Of a stretch of 20,544 bases of DNA, positions 6,343-13,918 are shown one piece after another (positions within the stretch are counted from its first letter, which is position 1; the number at the start of each line of letters is the position of its first letter). Under the pieces are notes generated by a model. The model did no database searches, was not told the DNA's origin, and was given only the letters and a program-made list of their open reading frames with translations. The stretch lies in IMG/VR virus record IMGVR_UViG_2529293044_000023; one strand, 5' to 3'. Source of the stretch: a virus. Lineage: Duplodnaviria; Heunggongvirae; Uroviricota; Caudoviricetes. The position numbers were made by a program, and so were the translations under genes.

Positions 6343-7199
6343 TATTCACACTCCCCAACCAGATTAAGAATAACCGCCGCGCCATTGTCTTTCATATATT
6401 CGCCCTTTCCGCTTGCCAAAAACCAACGACACACCTCCACTGCTTCAGCCCGTGTCACCGGTTTGATGGTCATCAGCAATTTTTCAAGGTAGCGCTCGCG
6501 GTCATATACCGATTCGTGATGCTCAGAGTAACCATACTCATCGCCCTGTTCTTTAGACGCAGTGTGGCGAACACTGTAGAGCCAGTCCCAGTAAACAAAC
6601 TCACGAACTACGTCTGACAATGTATGAGGCTCTGGCAGTACATCACGATAGCCATCAACATATGCACGACGCTGATCATCAATTTCATTCATACGGATGC
6701 CATCAATTCTGCCCGCTGTCTTCTCGGCTGCAGTCCAGCCCCAGAGATGATCGTCGATAAATTTCTGGGAAGACTTGATCACTCGCTCGGCTTCCACATC
6801 TTCGAGTGCTGCTTCATAGCTACCAAACGTAGCCCTGACTGATGTTGCTTTTTTGATATTCTCCCGGGCGATCCTGATTGCCTGTGCCGGGTTATCCATG
6901 CCGATGGTACCGAAAGCAATCTGGAAAGGATCACCACCATTCGCCAGCAGATAACGCGAATAGCGTTCCTGGGCCTCTTTTGGGGAAATTTTAATTTTCA
7001 CCAGCGCAGCCTCAGCAGCATCCAGATGTGCGGGTTCGTTCAGACGGATAACCTCCAGCACCCAAAGATAAGCATCAGTCTGCTTATGCCCGGTGATTCT
7101 CCGTTGCTCTGGCAGGGGCTTGATGTTTGCGAGGGCGGAGCTGTACGCTGCCGTCGGGATGGTGAATAGTGCTTTATGTTCGTTGTTATCAGTACGCAT
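6342..7199 (-). CDS. Hypothetical protein (285 aa) between the primase and Q, in the nin-region position
   Basis: Long ORF whose start overlaps the primase stop and whose stop overlaps the Q start, typical of a tightly packed operon. No domain recognised. Confidence 0.6.
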   Translation of the reverse strand: MRTDNNEHKALFTIPTAAYSSALANIKPLPEQRRITGHKQTDAYLWVLEVIRLNEPAHLDAAEAALVKIKISPKEAQERYSRYLLANGGDPFQIAFGTIGMDNPAQAIRIARENIKKATSVRATFGSYEAALEDVEAERVIKSSQKFIDDHLWGWTAAEKTAGRIDGIRMNEIDDQRRAYVDGYRDVLPEPHTLSDVVREFVYWDWLYSVRHTASKEQGDEYGYSEHHESVYDRERYLEKLLMTIKPVTRAEAVEVCRWFLASGKGEYMKDNGAAVILNLVGECE

Positions 7200-8167
7200 T
7201 ACGCAACCGCCTTTTTCTTATGGAAAACCAGCTCTCGAACCTGATCACCGTTCATGAGCATATTGTTGAAATCATCGTGATCCGGCCAGTACACGCTCAC
7301 GCGCTGCAGGTCATTCTTTGCCATCAGATTGGCATGAGCACATTCGCAAGCCGCAGCCAGCCCGGTGGCGCTGTTCTCGTCACGGTCGGCAAAAATAATC
7401 AGGTGCAGAACACCAGCTGGTACGCGGAACTTTTTCATAAAGCCGCTGTTAATGGTTGCCCAGGTGTTCACGTTATAAATCTGGTGCGCTGACAGCGCTG
7501 TTTCGATGCCTTCGGCGATACCCAGAGTGCTAGCAACAGGAAACATGCGGATAGCTACAGAACGAGCGTGATCCAAATAGTTATCTTCCTGCAGGGATTT
7601 GAGGCGCTTTGCACTGCTACCGATATCTGCTTTTTTATCACCATCAAGCAGAGTCTGGTGCAGATAGCACAACTCCCCTTTATCGTCCGTAGCAAGTGAA
7701 TAAAGAGACTGGAACACACTCCCGTTGTGTCTCTGCCTGGCATTGAACCGGATCGCCTCAGCAGGAAGACTGAATATTCCACGAGAATTAAGATACGCTG
7801 CGCCGGATGTACCACGCAGTGCCTCCAGTTTTGAAAACTTGCTCAATACCCGTTTGCGTAAGCTGGTGGCGCTGCTGGTTACCGGGATTTTAACCCGTTG
7901 GTAATCATTACCGCTCAGGCGGTCTATTTCGGTACAAATCTCGTTAAATGGCTTCGCCTGTGTCAGGGTGACAAGTTTCATACCATCGCCACTACCACAT
8001 ACACAGATCCACGTTCCTGCACCGTCGCGGTCATCAATTCGGAACTTGCCACGTGCACCGCATACCGGGCATTCACCCTTGAAGTGATTTTTTCCTGTTA
8101 TCGGCGGCAAGCCGAAGTGCTCTAATATTTCAGGCCAGCGGCCTTTCGCTGCAGCTGCTGTTTTCAT
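7199..8167 (-). CDS. DNA primase (zinc-binding N-terminus plus TOPRIM domain)
   Basis: Cys-rich motif GECPVCGARGKFRIDDRDGAGTWICVCG, then TOPRIM-like acidic motifs IAEGIETALS and IIFADRDENSAG. Adjacent to and co-oriented with the helicase. Confidence 0.75.
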   Translation of the reverse strand: MKTAAAAKGRWPEILEHFGLPPITGKNHFKGECPVCGARGKFRIDDRDGAGTWICVCGSGDGMKLVTLTQAKPFNEICTEIDRLSGNDYQRVKIPVTSSATSLRKRVLSKFSKLEALRGTSGAAYLNSRGIFSLPAEAIRFNARQRHNGSVFQSLYSLATDDKGELCYLHQTLLDGDKKADIGSSAKRLKSLQEDNYLDHARSVAIRMFPVASTLGIAEGIETALSAHQIYNVNTWATINSGFMKKFRVPAGVLHLIIFADRDENSATGLAAACECAHANLMAKNDLQRVSVYWPDHDDFNNMLMNGDQVRELVFHKKKAVA

Positions 8168-8168
8168 C

Positions 8169-9827
8169 TTACTGACTCAAACTGTTTATATTTTTCTGGA
8201 GTTGTTGCTTTGCTTGCATGATGCGCCAAGCCTCAGTGCCTATTGGCATCTCGCTTCGCTCACCTCGTTCCTGAGACAGAGGAATCGTTGCCTGCAATTT
8301 TTCTATAGTTCTCTGCGTCCGCTGACGGCCTTTGGCAAACCGAATCAGCTTGTGTTTGATGTAGTTACTTACTTCTGGGCTTATTTCCATCGGGAAACTG
8401 CTCAACCCATCAGGCCATTCACCGAATTTCTCCCTGAAAGTGTGAGCACACCATCCATCACTGACTGGACGCCCCAGCGAAGCACGCTGGCGCTGATAAA
8501 ATTTGATCTGACTCCACCAGGACTGTTTCTCTGCCTTCGTCGACTGATGCTGATTTTTACCCAGCTTATTAAGTTTGCGGCTAGTGTCAGTATCAACGTC
8601 TTCACCTCGCAGCGGCTTGTGTCCACATTTCGGGCAAACATAGACGCCAGCTGGCTTCATGTAGTGGCATTGAGGGCATTCATGTGGCAGTTTTTCGGCC
8701 CGTTCCTCAACTGCGCGGCGCGCGCTTTCCTCCATGCCATCAGACTTACCGGGAAGATCGTCGTACTCGATTGAATCCGGATAACCCAAACGGTGCACGG
8801 TGCCGCTGTGATCGAAGATAAGGCAGGACGCTTTACCCGGTGCGGTGCGCAGCCCACGCCCGAGTGCCTGCAACCAGCGAATTTCGCTTTTTGTTGGCCT
8901 GGCGTAGATGATGCAACGAACGTCACTATCGAATCCGGCTACCAGAACGCCCACACTAACGATGATTTTCGTTGCACCGGTTTCAAAGCGGTGAATGATG
9001 GTCTGGCGCTCATCTACCGGAGTGTCGGCGGTCATTACCTCAGCGTTAACACCCGCCAAGTTAAACTGGATTGTCAGATAATTGGCGTGAGCTACGTTGA
9101 CGCAGAAAGCGATGGTAGGTAGATCCCGACCATTCTCCAGCCAGTTCTGTACGATGTCGCCCACCAGCGTAGAGCCGCACATGATTTCAGCCAGCTGTGT
9201 TTCGTTGTAATCGCGGCCGTACTCAAGCGAAGATGTGGTTTTAACACCTTTCAGATCCGGCTTAGTTGGCGCGTAAAATTCGTATTTACTCAGATCGCCA
9301 CGCTGGATTAACTCGCCGATGGTGGTCGGCTTAATCAGTCGGTCATAGTATTTGCCCAGGAACGGAGAAAACGGAGTACCCGACAGGCCAATCACCTTTA
9401 CGCCTTTGCCGCGCAGACGTTCGATATCCTTCAGGATGCGTTTTTTACGCAGGTGCGCTTCGTCGATAATCAGCAGATCGATATTTTCAGGAAAAACACG
9501 ACGAATAAGCGTGTCAGCGCTGGCAATCTGAATTTTCCGGTCCGGATCGTAGTTCGGGTGATCCGCCCAGATATAACCGATTTCATCTCCAGGTAAACCA
9601 TACTGCACGAACCGATTAGCCGTCTGACCAATCAGGATGGTGTACGGAACACAGAACAGAACACGCATACCACGGCTGACAAAACCAGCAACTATGAAGG
9701 CTGCCAGACCCGTTTTACCGCTACCTGTTGGCGAGTAAACCATGAAGGTGTCGTTTGCCTTCCAGTCACGGCGCAACATGTTTAGCGCTCGCTCCTGTGC
9801 AAAATTCGGCGTGATTGTCAGCTGCAT
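8169..9827 (-). CDS. Superfamily-2 DEAH-box DNA helicase (phage replication helicase) with C-terminal zinc ribbon
   Basis: Walker A SPTGSGKTG, DEAH box LLIIDEAH, motif III GLSGTP, arginine finger region ALGRGLR. CPQCHYMK...CPKCGHKP forms a zinc-ribbon motif. Confidence 0.85.
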   Translation of the reverse strand: MQLTITPNFAQERALNMLRRDWKANDTFMVYSPTGSGKTGLAAFIVAGFVSRGMRVLFCVPYTILIGQTANRFVQYGLPGDEIGYIWADHPNYDPDRKIQIASADTLIRRVFPENIDLLIIDEAHLRKKRILKDIERLRGKGVKVIGLSGTPFSPFLGKYYDRLIKPTTIGELIQRGDLSKYEFYAPTKPDLKGVKTTSSLEYGRDYNETQLAEIMCGSTLVGDIVQNWLENGRDLPTIAFCVNVAHANYLTIQFNLAGVNAEVMTADTPVDERQTIIHRFETGATKIIVSVGVLVAGFDSDVRCIIYARPTKSEIRWLQALGRGLRTAPGKASCLIFDHSGTVHRLGYPDSIEYDDLPGKSDGMEESARRAVEERAEKLPHECPQCHYMKPAGVYVCPKCGHKPLRGEDVDTDTSRKLNKLGKNQHQSTKAEKQSWWSQIKFYQRQRASLGRPVSDGWCAHTFREKFGEWPDGLSSFPMEISPEVSNYIKHKLIRFAKGRQRTQRTIEKLQATIPLSQERGERSEMPIGTEAWRIMQAKQQLQKNINSLSQ

Positions 9828-9938
9828 TGTGCTGTCCCCGCAGTGATGAGATAATAATTTTGTGATGTGGTTTTCATGGATTCCTCCTCACATGGCTGGT
9901 GGTCTCCCCAAAGGCTGCCAGCCCCTTTCCGAATCAAC

Positions 9939-10307
9939 TCACTTAAATTTCGTCGCACGAATAACGTCAATTCCGTTCTCGCTATATCGAAGAGGGTGCT
10001 TACCATCCCTGAGCAGGACAAAGCCTGACATCCCCTCAGGTAGCTGAGCCAGCTTCATCAACGAACGGTTGCGGGGAGACTTCTTATCGACCTCAATGGC
10101 ACACTGCTGGCCGTCTGATGATGTAACCAGGCAATCAATAAACCCTTTACGACCACCGCTAATGCTGATGCTGAAATTGCGTTGCAGATGGTATCCCTGA
10201 GACTTGATTTTTTTCTGCATCACATAATCGAAAACGACTTTGTCATCGGAGCGAATGAATTGCTCTTCCAGGAGAGTGATTAAATTTTGCTTCAGGTCTT
10301 CACTCAT
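9939..10307 (-). CDS. Hypothetical protein (122 aa), possible PD-(D/E)xK-like nuclease motif
   Basis: ATG-initiated ORF upstream of the helicase. Motif GFIDCLV...AIEVDKK is loosely compatible with a D...(D/E)xK nuclease signature. Weak RBS. Confidence 0.45.
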   Translation of the reverse strand: MSEDLKQNLITLLEEQFIRSDDKVVFDYVMQKKIKSQGYHLQRNFSISISGGRKGFIDCLVTSSDGQQCAIEVDKKSPRNRSLMKLAQLPEGMSGFVLLRDGKHPLRYSENGIDVIRATKFK

Positions 10308-10556
10308 ACTTTTTTATCCATCTTGTACTAGCTTTCTGGTACAGCCGTTTTTTCAGGGGTATCCCCCTTTAGATCGAGATCTACCTAACCTATGTACCCG
10401 TCTGTTGGAAAAGCCTGTTCCAGTGCTTCGCACTAACACACGGGCACTCCTCCCCCTCCCCTCCTCTCATTGAATTTTGTGCGTACTCTTTAACTAGTAC
10501 AAAAATGCAATGAGATTTGGGATTCAGCCACCGGACACCTTTAAGCCCGGTACCAA

Positions 10557-12818
<2,262 letters not shown>

Positions 12819-13094: not shown

Positions 13095-13228
13095 CGCAAC
13101 CCACCAATCTAAACTTTATAAATTCAAGATTACATCAAGTTTAAATTAACATGCAAGTCCACAAAAGATCGAATACACTAAAATCAAGTAAAAATTTATC
13201 GAAACCAAGTAACCAGCAAGGATTAACA
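13095..13228. promoter_or_regulatory. Divergent promoter/operator region between cro-like and cI-like genes (OR-like)
   Basis: AT-rich 134-bp intergenic region with repeated ATCAAGT-type motifs (13134-13140, 13183-13189, variant 13204-13210). Minus-strand TTATAA/TATAAA -10 candidate ~20 bp upstream of the cro start. Exact promoters not resolved. Confidence 0.45.
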
Positions 13229-13918
13229 ATGAAAAACTTAAAGAGCACTGAAAATCGAATTACAAAGCTGCTACAGGAGAAAGGCTGGAGCCAAGCAGAG
13301 CTGGCCCGAAAATTAGGTGTCAGCGCACAGTCCGTACAGTACTGGACAACAGGAAAAACATTTCCAAGGGGAAACCGGCTTGCCCAGTTATCCGAAATAA
13401 GTGGTTATCCGCAATCGTGGTTTTTAGGAGAAATCACGTCACGGCAGTTCTCTTCAAAGGAAAAACATCAAGCAAGAACTGACAGTGTGGTCTTTAACGT
13501 GCTCGATGTTGAGTTTAGTTGCGGCGATGGAACACATGTCCGTGGGGACTTTATCGATGTAGTTCGCTCAATCGAGCTTGATCCTGAATATGCCCGTCGC
13601 CTTGTTGGCAATAGAGCATTTCAAAACATAGAGATTGGTAACGCAAGAGGAGATAGTATGGCTCCAACAATAGCCCCAGGAGATCTTCTTTTTCTCGATA
13701 AAACAGTGAATTACTTTGATGGTGATGGCATTTATGCTTTTTGCTTTGATGGTGAATGCTACGTCAAAAGATTACAAAAGATAGGAAGTAAAATCATGGT
13801 GTTATCTGATAACCCAAATTACCAATCCTGGAGCATTGAAAAAGATGCTCTTGAGCTGCTTTATATCCAATCGAAGGTAATCTCATCTGTTCCATTCAAT
13901 ATAAATAGATTTGGTTAA
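13229..13918 (+). CDS. cI-like prophage repressor (N-terminal HTH_XRE, C-terminal LexA/S24 autopeptidase domain)
   Basis: HTH (WSQAELARKLGVSAQSVQYWTTGKTFP). S24 catalytic Ser in GDSMAPTI and Lys in ECYVKRL. AAGGA RBS 6 nt before the ATG at 13229; the track's 13151 start adds a low-complexity extension without an RBS and is rejected. Confidence 0.85.
   Translation: MKNLKSTENRITKLLQEKGWSQAELARKLGVSAQSVQYWTTGKTFPRGNRLAQLSEISGYPQSWFLGEITSRQFSSKEKHQARTDSVVFNVLDVEFSCGDGTHVRGDFIDVVRSIELDPEYARRLVGNRAFQNIEIGNARGDSMAPTIAPGDLLFLDKTVNYFDGDGIYAFCFDGECYVKRLQKIGSKIMVLSDNPNYQSWSIEKDALELLYIQSKVISSVPFNINRFG

Follow-up and report, generated by a model that had tools for sequence, protein, structure and literature searches.

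A conserved non-coding element ahead of the helicase and primase genes in lambdoid prophages of enterobacteria: a candidate origin or control region

The question raised by this locus is what a gap of non-coding DNA (10308-10556) does in the early-right region of a lambdoid E. coli prophage that carries genes for a helicase and a primase. The window, that is the whole stretch of 20,544 nucleotides analysed, is part of that prophage; it is 99.7% identical to phage phi467 over the queried region and 85.5% identical to Salmonella phage Fels-1. The initial annotation had proposed that the gap is a replication origin or a promoter for the helicase and primase genes, and drew attention to a C/T run, a 9-bp inverted repeat and a GATC palindrome, each of which is found within 10308-10556 just where it was placed. 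The gene context was likewise read correctly, with an upstream gene split by an insertion sequence (IS) and a downstream open reading frame (9939-10307, minus strand) that precedes the genes of the helicase and of a Toprim primase. The minus strand is the early-right operon strand in the window, and in intact relatives the order of this region is cro, p97, the gap, p122, the SF2 helicase, the primase, a 285-aa gene and the antiterminator Q. The genes that bear on the question are these:

13151-13918, plus strand: cI repressor gene
About 10788-12740: IS21-family element (IstA/IstB), inserted in p97, its junction taken from blastn of the window against the related locus L018
10557..10787, minus strand: 3' part of p97 (codons ~22-97; phrog_852), truncated by the IS
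9939..10307, minus strand: p122, 122 aa, PD-(D/E)xK nuclease fold (phrog_1347), between the element and the helicase
8169-9827, minus strand: SF2 (RadD-like) helicase (Pfam ResIII/Helicase_C; PHROG DNA helicase)
7199-8167, minus strand: P4-alpha-like Zn-ribbon/Toprim primase (Pfam Zn_Ribbon_Prim/DUF7146/Toprim_3; PHROG DNA primase)

The p97 fragment corresponds to residues 22-97 of the intact phi467 gene (100% by tblastn), and the IS21-family insertion separates cro and PR from all downstream genes in the window. With p97 interrupted, the module is no longer connected to PR, and the element in this window is probably silent. The best solved relative of the helicase is RadD; the enzyme is of SF2 type and not one of the hexameric replicative helicases, and the primase is P4-alpha/T7-like. 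No family assignment was found for p97, p122 and p285; p97, which matched nothing in PDB or Pfam, is probably a small helical protein, its predicted three-helix model being of low confidence (pLDDT 63) and insufficient for a fold search. The product of the first left-operon gene is an HTH_3 protein, not one like N. No O-, RepA- or P4-alpha-C-terminal-like protein occurs in the module, and p97 is always adjacent to the element; to judge from the sequences of its products, the module has no recognisable initiator.

Related loci were gathered in four ways (by DNA similarity, by the p122 protein, by the core DNA motif and by the p97 protein), and more than 130 of them were compared, from Escherichia, Salmonella, Klebsiella, Yersinia, Buttiauxella and Xenorhabdus. 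On the sense strand the order of parts is fixed: the p97 stop, hairpin H1 (none to two copies), palindrome 1, a pair of G-runs, CCTTTTCCAA, GGTTAGGTAG, AGATCT, an A-run and palindrome 2. The AGATCT follows GGTTAGGTAG directly or 5-6 nt later, and palindrome 1 often lies inside a longer AT-rich inverted repeat. In the window these parts are laid out as follows, in the direction of early-right transcription:

10530..10551, minus strand: hairpin H1, ACCGGGC-UUAAAGGU-GUCCGGU, beginning 5 nt past the p97 stop
10465-10478 and 10502-10515: AT-rich extended inverted repeat with 14-nt arms, 93% complementary, enclosing palindrome 1
10483..10500: palindrome 1 (site 1), GTACTAGTTAAAGAGTAC on the minus strand, class A GTAY-N10-RTAC
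10447..10468, minus strand: purine tract GAGAGGAGGGGAGGGGGAGGAG, the local form of the universal G-run pair
10423..10433, minus strand: mini-hairpin GTGC-GAA-GCAC, which contains GCGAAGC
10401..10422, minus strand: TGGAACAGGCTTTTCCAACAGA, a local hairpin TGGAA/TTCCA with the conserved CCTTTTCCAA motif
10376..10391, minus strand: core motif GGTTAGGTAGATCTC, made of GGTTAGGTAG and then AGATCT with its Dam GATC, overlapping TAGATCGAGATCTA
10348..10367, minus (sense) strand: GGGGG-AUA-CCCC hairpin, then an A-run (AAAAAA)
10325..10342: palindrome 2 (site 2), GTACCAGAAAGCTAGTAC on the minus strand, with an outer arm that complements that of site 1

Conservation across the gap is uneven and is highest in a core of 60 nt (10381-10440), whose mean pairwise identity among twelve representatives of the enteric clade is 0.82-0.90. 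The 20-nt windows of the p97 and p122 coding flanks range from 0.55 to 0.83 pairwise identity and none is as high as the core, which is thus under stronger constraint than the adjoining genes. By the initial annotation's own criterion, absence or free variation of the region in related phages with the same replication genes would have refuted its suggestion; the region is present in all relatives examined, with a core better conserved than the coding DNA beside it. The divergence of the element follows that of the flanking genes, it points the same way relative to transcription at every locus, and STEC genomes contain copies with 96.8-97.3% identity to the query.

The element is also tied closely to particular neighbours. 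The helicase lies downstream in 61 of the 61 motif-defined occurrences (viral contigs with the G-runs and the core motif), and in 60 of these p97 is found upstream at a distance of about 440 nt, the remaining locus beginning too near the element to show p97. Approached from the other side, all of the p97 loci that extend far enough carry the element (78/78) and 76 carry the helicase; the two without a helicase belong to a single decayed prophage, where terminase genes come immediately next. By contrast with these partners p122 is dispensable, being missing in about half of the loci, with a NUMOD4/HNH homing endonuclease in its place in L018, and the element belongs with p97, the helicase and the primase. 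In minimal Klebsiella phage genomes (plasmid records of 37-42 kb) the interval from cro to Q is reduced to p97, the gap, the helicase, the primase and one small gene, and the gap is the sole large non-coding stretch of the module.

The C/T run singled out by the initial annotation, CTCCTCCCCCTCCCCTCCTCTC at 10447-10468, is real: it is the only pyrimidine or purine run of 22 nt in the window, and none of 100 dinucleotide-preserving shuffles produced such a run. Its meaning, however, was misread, the relevant form being two G-runs on the sense strand. The pair follows the pattern of four to seven G residues, 1-3 nt, and again four to seven G residues (typically GGGGGG-TAA-GGGGGG, a mirror repeat); it is kept in every aligned lineage, lies on the sense strand of the early-right operon without exception, and is embedded in a tract of purines whose length across relatives runs from 22 to about 55 nt. 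In all, 138 loci match the pattern of G-runs plus core. A small open reading frame in the purine tract (ATG AGA GGA ...) was considered and rejected, its start codon being unconserved and indels shifting its frame in relatives.

Downstream of the G-runs, the GATC palindrome TAGATCGAGATCTA (10370-10383, TAGATC-GA-GATCTA) is present as annotated, but only one of its halves is conserved. That half is TAGATCTC (AGATCT, a Dam site), adjoining GGTTAGGTAG, and the other half is unconserved in Fels-1, L035, L018 and L075. TTARRTAGATC is invariant in 28 non-redundant sequences, and 21 of 109 distinct loci carry a 5-6-nt insertion between TTAGGTAG and GATCT. The window has one copy of the core motif; two copies are seen only in the Xenorhabdus loci L006 and L007. 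The segment 10401..10422 has a mean pairwise identity of 0.88, and its CCAA is invariant in 28 lineages. Next to it, the GCGAAGC mini-hairpin is invariant in enteric lineages of the p122 type and absent from Xenorhabdus and from p122-less lineages; the one compensatory variant, GCGC-GAA-GCGC in L018, L075 and L076, comes from related sequences and possibly reflects few events. Further on, the A-run is conserved and the GGGGG-AUA-CCCC hairpin before it varies by lineage; on neither strand does this hairpin (10348..10367) pass the criteria of a terminator scan.

The 9-bp inverted repeat of the initial annotation, TTGTACTAG (10323-10331) and CTAGTACAA (10494-10502), is perfect, and taken alone it is marginally unusual, since shuffles of the near-identical phi467 sequence equal it in about 3.5% of trials. 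Its two halves are in fact the outer arms of two 18-bp palindromes of the form GTAY-N10-RTAC, GTACTAGCTTTCTGGTAC (10325-10342) and GTACTCTTTAACTAGTAC (10483-10500), which bracket the element. Sites of the form GTAC-N10-GTAC number two in 20.5 kb, both in the gap, against 0.09 expected. In almost every lineage some 35-38 bp separate palindrome 1 from the G-runs downstream of it. The palindromes vary at the centre and keep an unchanging outer GTA(Y)/(R)TAC. Positions 4-5 of site 1 vary, and there the outer arm matches the complement of site 2 in 91-94% of the 47 distinct pairs compared, a count made on related sequences in which few events may account for several changes; within-site symmetry is far weaker (6-77%). 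In class-B lineages (L018, L075/76, L124/151) other inverted repeats stand at the same positions. The pair thus behaves like inverted repeats at the ends of the element, which may base-pair with each other or be mirrored protein sites. The spacing of the palindromes varies from 145 to 176 bp across lineages without helical phasing, on which ground DNA looping between them was rejected, and distances from motif to motif are likewise not helically quantised.

The extended inverted repeat with 14-nt arms around palindrome 1, which like the hairpin at 10530-10551 was overlooked in the first reading of this DNA, is predicted to fold as a long hairpin. As read from the sequences, its arms are altered yet complementary in the Klebsiella lineage L015 and missing in L017 and L018.

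How might these parts be understood together? Because the gap is strictly linked to the module and conserved above its coding flanks, and by elimination of other readings, it is most likely a cis-acting origin or control region of a replication module of non-lambda type (p97, SF2 helicase and P4-like primase); this is held tentatively, at a little less than an even chance. Features of the kind found at origins include the AT-rich 14-bp-arm inverted repeat, which directly adjoins the purine/pyrimidine mirror repeat, and the duplication of the core in Xenorhabdus. The origin suggestion of the initial annotation survives in that the refutation test bears it out indirectly and the linkage to the module is strict, but the classical signs that it proposed to look for did not appear. 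No DnaA box (TTWTNCACA, up to 1 mismatch) occurs in 10308-10556, and the window total of 43 compares with 42.6 by chance; no tandem repeats occur in 9800-10900, and the direct repeats in 10200-10700 are weak two-copy matches, not iterons. GC skew was uninformative, since it mainly reflects gene orientation and the IS, and no pronounced AT-rich stretch for unwinding is longer than about 50 bp.

The other half of the initial suggestion, a promoter for the helicase and primase genes, was not borne out: on both strands of 9800-11000 there are no sigma-70-like sites (1.2 expected), and no -35/-10 pair is conserved in the alignment. A sigma-54 promoter at TGGAAC-N5-TTTCC was also rejected by eye, the GC of its -12 element being missing and the sequence unconserved in L017.

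In the proposed mechanism, early-right transcription from PR, a promoter placed here from gene order, would pass through the element. The G-runs, GGTTAGGTAG and AGATCT would serve as recognition or opening sites for the phage SF2 helicase and primase, possibly aided by p97, and the AT-rich palindrome beside the homopurine mirror repeat would be the part most easily unwound. Helicase and primase could then reach single-stranded DNA at the motifs and begin synthesis, after which host DnaB and Pol III would take over. The lineage-specific inverted repeats and hairpins at the flanks may modulate or delimit the site.

The fixed orientation of the element, the G-runs on the RNA-like strand and the hairpins of the sense strand would, by inference, fit an initiation that is activated by transcription or begins from an R-loop. 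A more far-reaching proposal, which must be counted rather unlikely, is an origin that depends on transcription and needs no initiator. Transcription from PR through the G-runs would leave a stable R-loop or another non-B structure, in the way of ColE1 RNA II or mitochondrial CSB II, on which the RadD-like helicase would act in the manner of PriA; the displaced sense strand would fold into the conserved hairpins, the helicase would recognise structure at GGTTAGGTAG-AGATCT and bring in primase and host DnaB, and p97 together with the UUAAAGGU hairpin could couple initiation to the nascent RNA. Temperate phages of enterobacteria would then, if this were true, possess an origin of a new class.

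Some properties of the element point away from a site that works purely as DNA. A constant orientation relative to transcription is not required of a purely double-stranded binding site and counts against the origin reading; so do the RNA-type covariation of H1 and a sense fold with z = -4.0, and part or all of the element could act as RNA. The main rival is therefore a structured RNA leader in the early-right transcript, whose task would be the dosage of the replication genes, not the initiation of replication. In such a leader the hairpins with the UUAAAGGU loop, the G-rich segment and the stems would control the processing, stability, read-through or translation of the helicase and primase genes. 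This explanation is judged somewhat unlikely, and operator and switch or mobile-element readings rank below it.

The best evidence for the leader comes from H1. Among 31 distinct instances it has an invariant 8-nt loop, UUAAAGGU (TTRAAGGT), on a covarying stem of 7 bp, in which 91% of cells are paired and six of the seven pairs are altered on both sides. Its covariation score of 0.627 compares with 0.277 in shuffles (reached in 0/500) and 0.07-0.16 in slid controls, although these counts use related sequences, in which few events may explain several changes. H1 is rich in G·U pairs, which are C·A mismatches on the opposite strand and so are functional on the sense strand only. Most loci have one copy, 18 (mostly of p122-less lineages) have two in tandem with differing stems and the same loop, and 19 (mostly Xenorhabdus) have none. 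Because the stems covary strongly and contain G·U pairs, at least this part of the element must work as a single strand, most simply as RNA. The constant orientation in all loci, already mentioned, speaks for the leader as well, as does the fold of the whole gap, which is better than that of shuffles (sense RNA z = -4.0). The compensatory changes in the GCGAAGC hairpin and in the extended stem around site 1 also favour it, and so does the complementarity of the outer arms of the two palindromes, which RNAalifold pairs.

Against the leader, the antisense strand also folds well (z = -3.4), and the invariance of the outer GTAC of the palindromes, which does not covary, is more typical of a sequence-specific DNA site. 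The other predicted stems (the GCGAAGC mini-hairpin, TGGAA/TTCCA, G-tract/CUUUUCC and the extended stem around palindrome 1) are invariant, specific to a lineage, missing elsewhere or dependent on single compensatory events. Xenorhabdus retains the G-runs, core motif and palindromes although three hairpins (H1, GCGAAGC and TGGAA/TTCCA) are missing there. What is conserved across the family is thus primary sequence and order, which points to sequence-specific recognition, most simply on DNA. Nor does the leader belong to a recognised family: Rfam gave no matches at gathering thresholds in the whole window, and at E<=10 its only matches in 10200-10700 are two at chance level (E 2.6 and 6.4). A leader that acted by antitermination would also call for parts that are missing here, namely a terminator, a boxA and a left-operon copy of the UUAAAGGU hairpin. 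The sole candidate for an intrinsic terminator in the gap (10323-10344) lies on the plus, antisense strand and was rejected, being palindrome 2 with G·T pairs. The Pas sRNAs map elsewhere in the prophage, according to the literature.

A further explanation is that the gap is an operator or other regulatory DNA, in which the 18-bp palindromes would bind a dimeric phage regulator that represses the replication genes or times their expression, and the core would bind a further factor, without any part in an origin. The invariant outer GTAY/RTAC with a variable centre is indeed like that of phage operators, one palindrome stands 30-43 bp upstream of the p122 start codon, and the palindromes fall into exchangeable classes of specificity. 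But no promoter-like site is there to be regulated, the spacing of 145-176 bp between the sites is unphased, the G-runs and the more strongly conserved core are left unexplained, and no candidate binder tracks the class of the palindromes. Proteins that might read the palindromes were sought by co-variation with class. The window (class A) and L018 (class B) share 99.4% DNA identity across the region of cro, cI and the gene of a 142-aa HTH protein, and their p97 is 99% identical, which disposes of these four; the tail of the helicase is uncorrelated with class, and class A persists without p122. No binder was found among these six, and the operator is distinctly unlikely.

An invertible switch or miniature mobile element bounded by inverted repeats is scarcely credible, and the lack of inverted or dispersed copies in effect already refutes it: lineage-specific inverted repeats do bracket a segment of 145-176 bp in most lineages, but the flipped form was seen in 0 of 78 matching E. 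coli genomes (at least 80% of construct length), 28 of 28 non-redundant relatives have the same orientation, the median is one place per genome and the maximum two, always at the same prophage position between p97 and the helicase, the segment contains no promoter, and its divergence tracks the flanking genes.

The interest of a cis-acting origin or control region at this place lies in the number of phages that it concerns. Helicase/primase modules of this type are often carried by prophages of E. coli (STEC among them), of Salmonella (Fels-1), of Klebsiella and of their relatives, and a single, sharply conserved non-coding element of ~200 bp is here pinpointed as the candidate cis-acting site of such modules. 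Its invariant motifs (paired G-runs, GGTTAGGTAG, AGATCT and the flanking palindromes) can now be told apart from lineage-specific decoration, and a covarying hairpin of RNA type with an invariant loop is newly described. The origin or control of these phages is thereby directly testable, with a bearing on prophage induction, on the copy number of Stx phages and on ways to engineer or block them.

It remains to set the element beside systems that are better understood. The lambda origin comprises iterons, a palindrome and an AT-rich region whose strands are asymmetric in purines and pyrimidines, and is activated by transcription from PR. Like it, the present element lies in the early-right replication module of a lambdoid phage, would be transcribed from PR, and combines an asymmetric tract with an AT-rich palindrome. 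Unlike it, the element lies outside any initiator gene, its module has no O or P homologues, its partners are an SF2 helicase and a P4-like primase, it has no set of three to four direct iterons, and there is no similarity of sequence.

Origins primed by an R-loop or a transcript include those of ColE1 (RNA II), of phage T4 (oriF and oriG) and of mitochondria (CSB II, G6AG8), which have a G-run on the RNA-like strand and no dedicated initiator. The element likewise has G-runs on the RNA-like strand downstream of the presumed PR, hairpins on the sense strand, a fixed orientation and no dedicated initiator. In contrast to these origins, its richness in G beyond the runs is modest, it has no similarity to RNA II, and it lies inside a polycistronic operon, whereas they lie at the end of a dedicated primer transcript.

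A third comparison is with the nut site (boxB) of lambdoid phages and the put site of HK022. H1 resembles these in having an invariant loop on a freely covarying stem, in standing just after an early-right gene and in occurring at times as a tandem pair. It differs in that its loop is of 8 nt, there is no conserved boxA, no copy in the left operon and no downstream terminator, and it is absent in Xenorhabdus. No boxA (YGCTCTTTA-like) occurs upstream of H1, where relatives show the variable 3' end of p97 (GCGCTCCTGA, ACGTTCCTGA, GCGTACCTGA and ACGATCCGTTG), and a search for a twin like nutL found TTAAAGGT once each in the window, in phi467 and in the early region of Fels-1. A nut site was accordingly rejected: the hairpin fits, but boxA, twin site and terminator are all wanting.

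The sequence d(GCGAAGC) forms an unusually stable DNA hairpin, which invites comparison with the single-strand initiation (ssi) signals, such as the n' site of phiX174 and G4 ori-c. The element has a cluster of hairpins on the sense strand, among them an exact GCGAAGC, and adjoins the genes of an SF2 helicase and a primase; unlike those signals, it carries GCGAAGC only in some enteric lineages and shows no similarity to known ssi sequences.

A search of the literature found no Fels-1 origin, no origin for modules of the Eru type and nothing on this element. The nearest precedent is the description of "Eru" units, the non-lambdoid replication units of Stx phages, in which classification is by proteins only, no cis-acting site is described, and of the proteins of Eru phage replication nothing is said to be known (PMC8951638). 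The likeness here is one of concept: in both cases lambdoid prophages have had their O and P genes replaced by genes for a helicase and a primase.

The early-right operon is interrupted in the window by an IS21-family insertion sequence that disrupts p97, the 97-aa gene upstream of the conserved non-coding element, past about codon 21. The boundaries of the insertion were inferred by aligning the window to a related locus (L018) that is uninterrupted at this point, and its content is as follows.

Window ~10788-12740: IS21-family insertion sequence
Window 10873-11895, plus strand: istA, encoding IstA (340 aa, with an rve domain)
Window 11892-12674, plus strand: istB, encoding IstB (260 aa)

The insertion cuts off cro and PR from the replication genes and the antiterminator gene Q, so that the prophage, judged from this gene arrangement, is probably defective in early-right expression and replication. 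Elsewhere, phages of this type turn up repeatedly in assemblies as extrachromosomal molecules of their own. The Klebsiella pneumoniae plasmid records listed are NZ_CP076549.1 and 11 others, most of them 37-42 kb non-mobilizable 'plasmids'; the one record examined, NZ_CP076549.1 (37 kb), proved to be the genome of a phage, in which the replication module accompanies holin, lysozyme, Q and cI/cro genes.

Downstream of the element, the following features lie in or beside the replication genes.

Window 9939-10307, minus strand: p122, a small protein with a PD-(D/E)xK nuclease fold
Window 9828-9938, minus strand: second conserved non-coding stretch, directly upstream of the helicase gene
Window 8169-8330, minus strand: mosaic C-terminal tail of the helicase (residues ~500-552)
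L018:2338-2940, minus strand: NUMOD4 + HNH_3 homing endonuclease gene, filling the slot that p122 occupies in the window

A NUMOD4 + HNH_3 homing endonuclease gene also occupies this slot in another related locus, L113, and this interval, from the element to where the helicase begins, looks like a hot spot for selfish nuclease genes. The entire gap has been swapped together with the endonuclease gene in L018, and the flanking genes are still 95-100% identical. The second non-coding stretch, which contains a GGCTGGC...GCCAGCC hairpin, lies 60-250 nt downstream of palindrome 2 (one of the two sites bracketing the element) in p122-less loci such as L078. In such phages the stretch further includes a palindrome, TTCYYCTGGAARAGT, and a mini-ORF of 19 codons that overlaps the helicase start, and the full non-coding leader spans ~500 nt. 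The helicase tail is of at least four unrelated types, terminating in a short conserved motif (e.g., ...AKQQLQKNINSLSQ or ...IKQQLGKRV), and is exchanged independently of the remaining protein and of palindrome class; it may act as a module through which the helicase contacts the primase, whose gene comes next.

Within the element, two Xenorhabdus loci (L006:3739-4003 and L007:3739-4003) carry the core motif AGTACATAGGTTARGTAG twice, the copies 30 nt apart and the second with a 4-5-nt insertion ahead of AGATCT; this is the sole iteron-like duplication seen in the element family. On the plus (antisense) strand the tract at 10447-10468 is G-free and C-rich, reaching ~55 nt in Klebsiella lineages. 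It would serve well as a rut site, where Rho could load onto any antisense transcript, and such putative loading may offer an alternative reason for the strand bias.

The fold of p122 is assigned with confidence, its top structural matches being Bax1 and the BamHI/OkrAI/BstYI/BglII group. Enzymes of that group cleave around GATC, and AGATCT is invariant in the element adjoining p122; a putative link between the two is unproven, because p122 is optional and AGATCT is not depleted in the window. Bax1 is the nuclease partner of an SF2 helicase, XPB.
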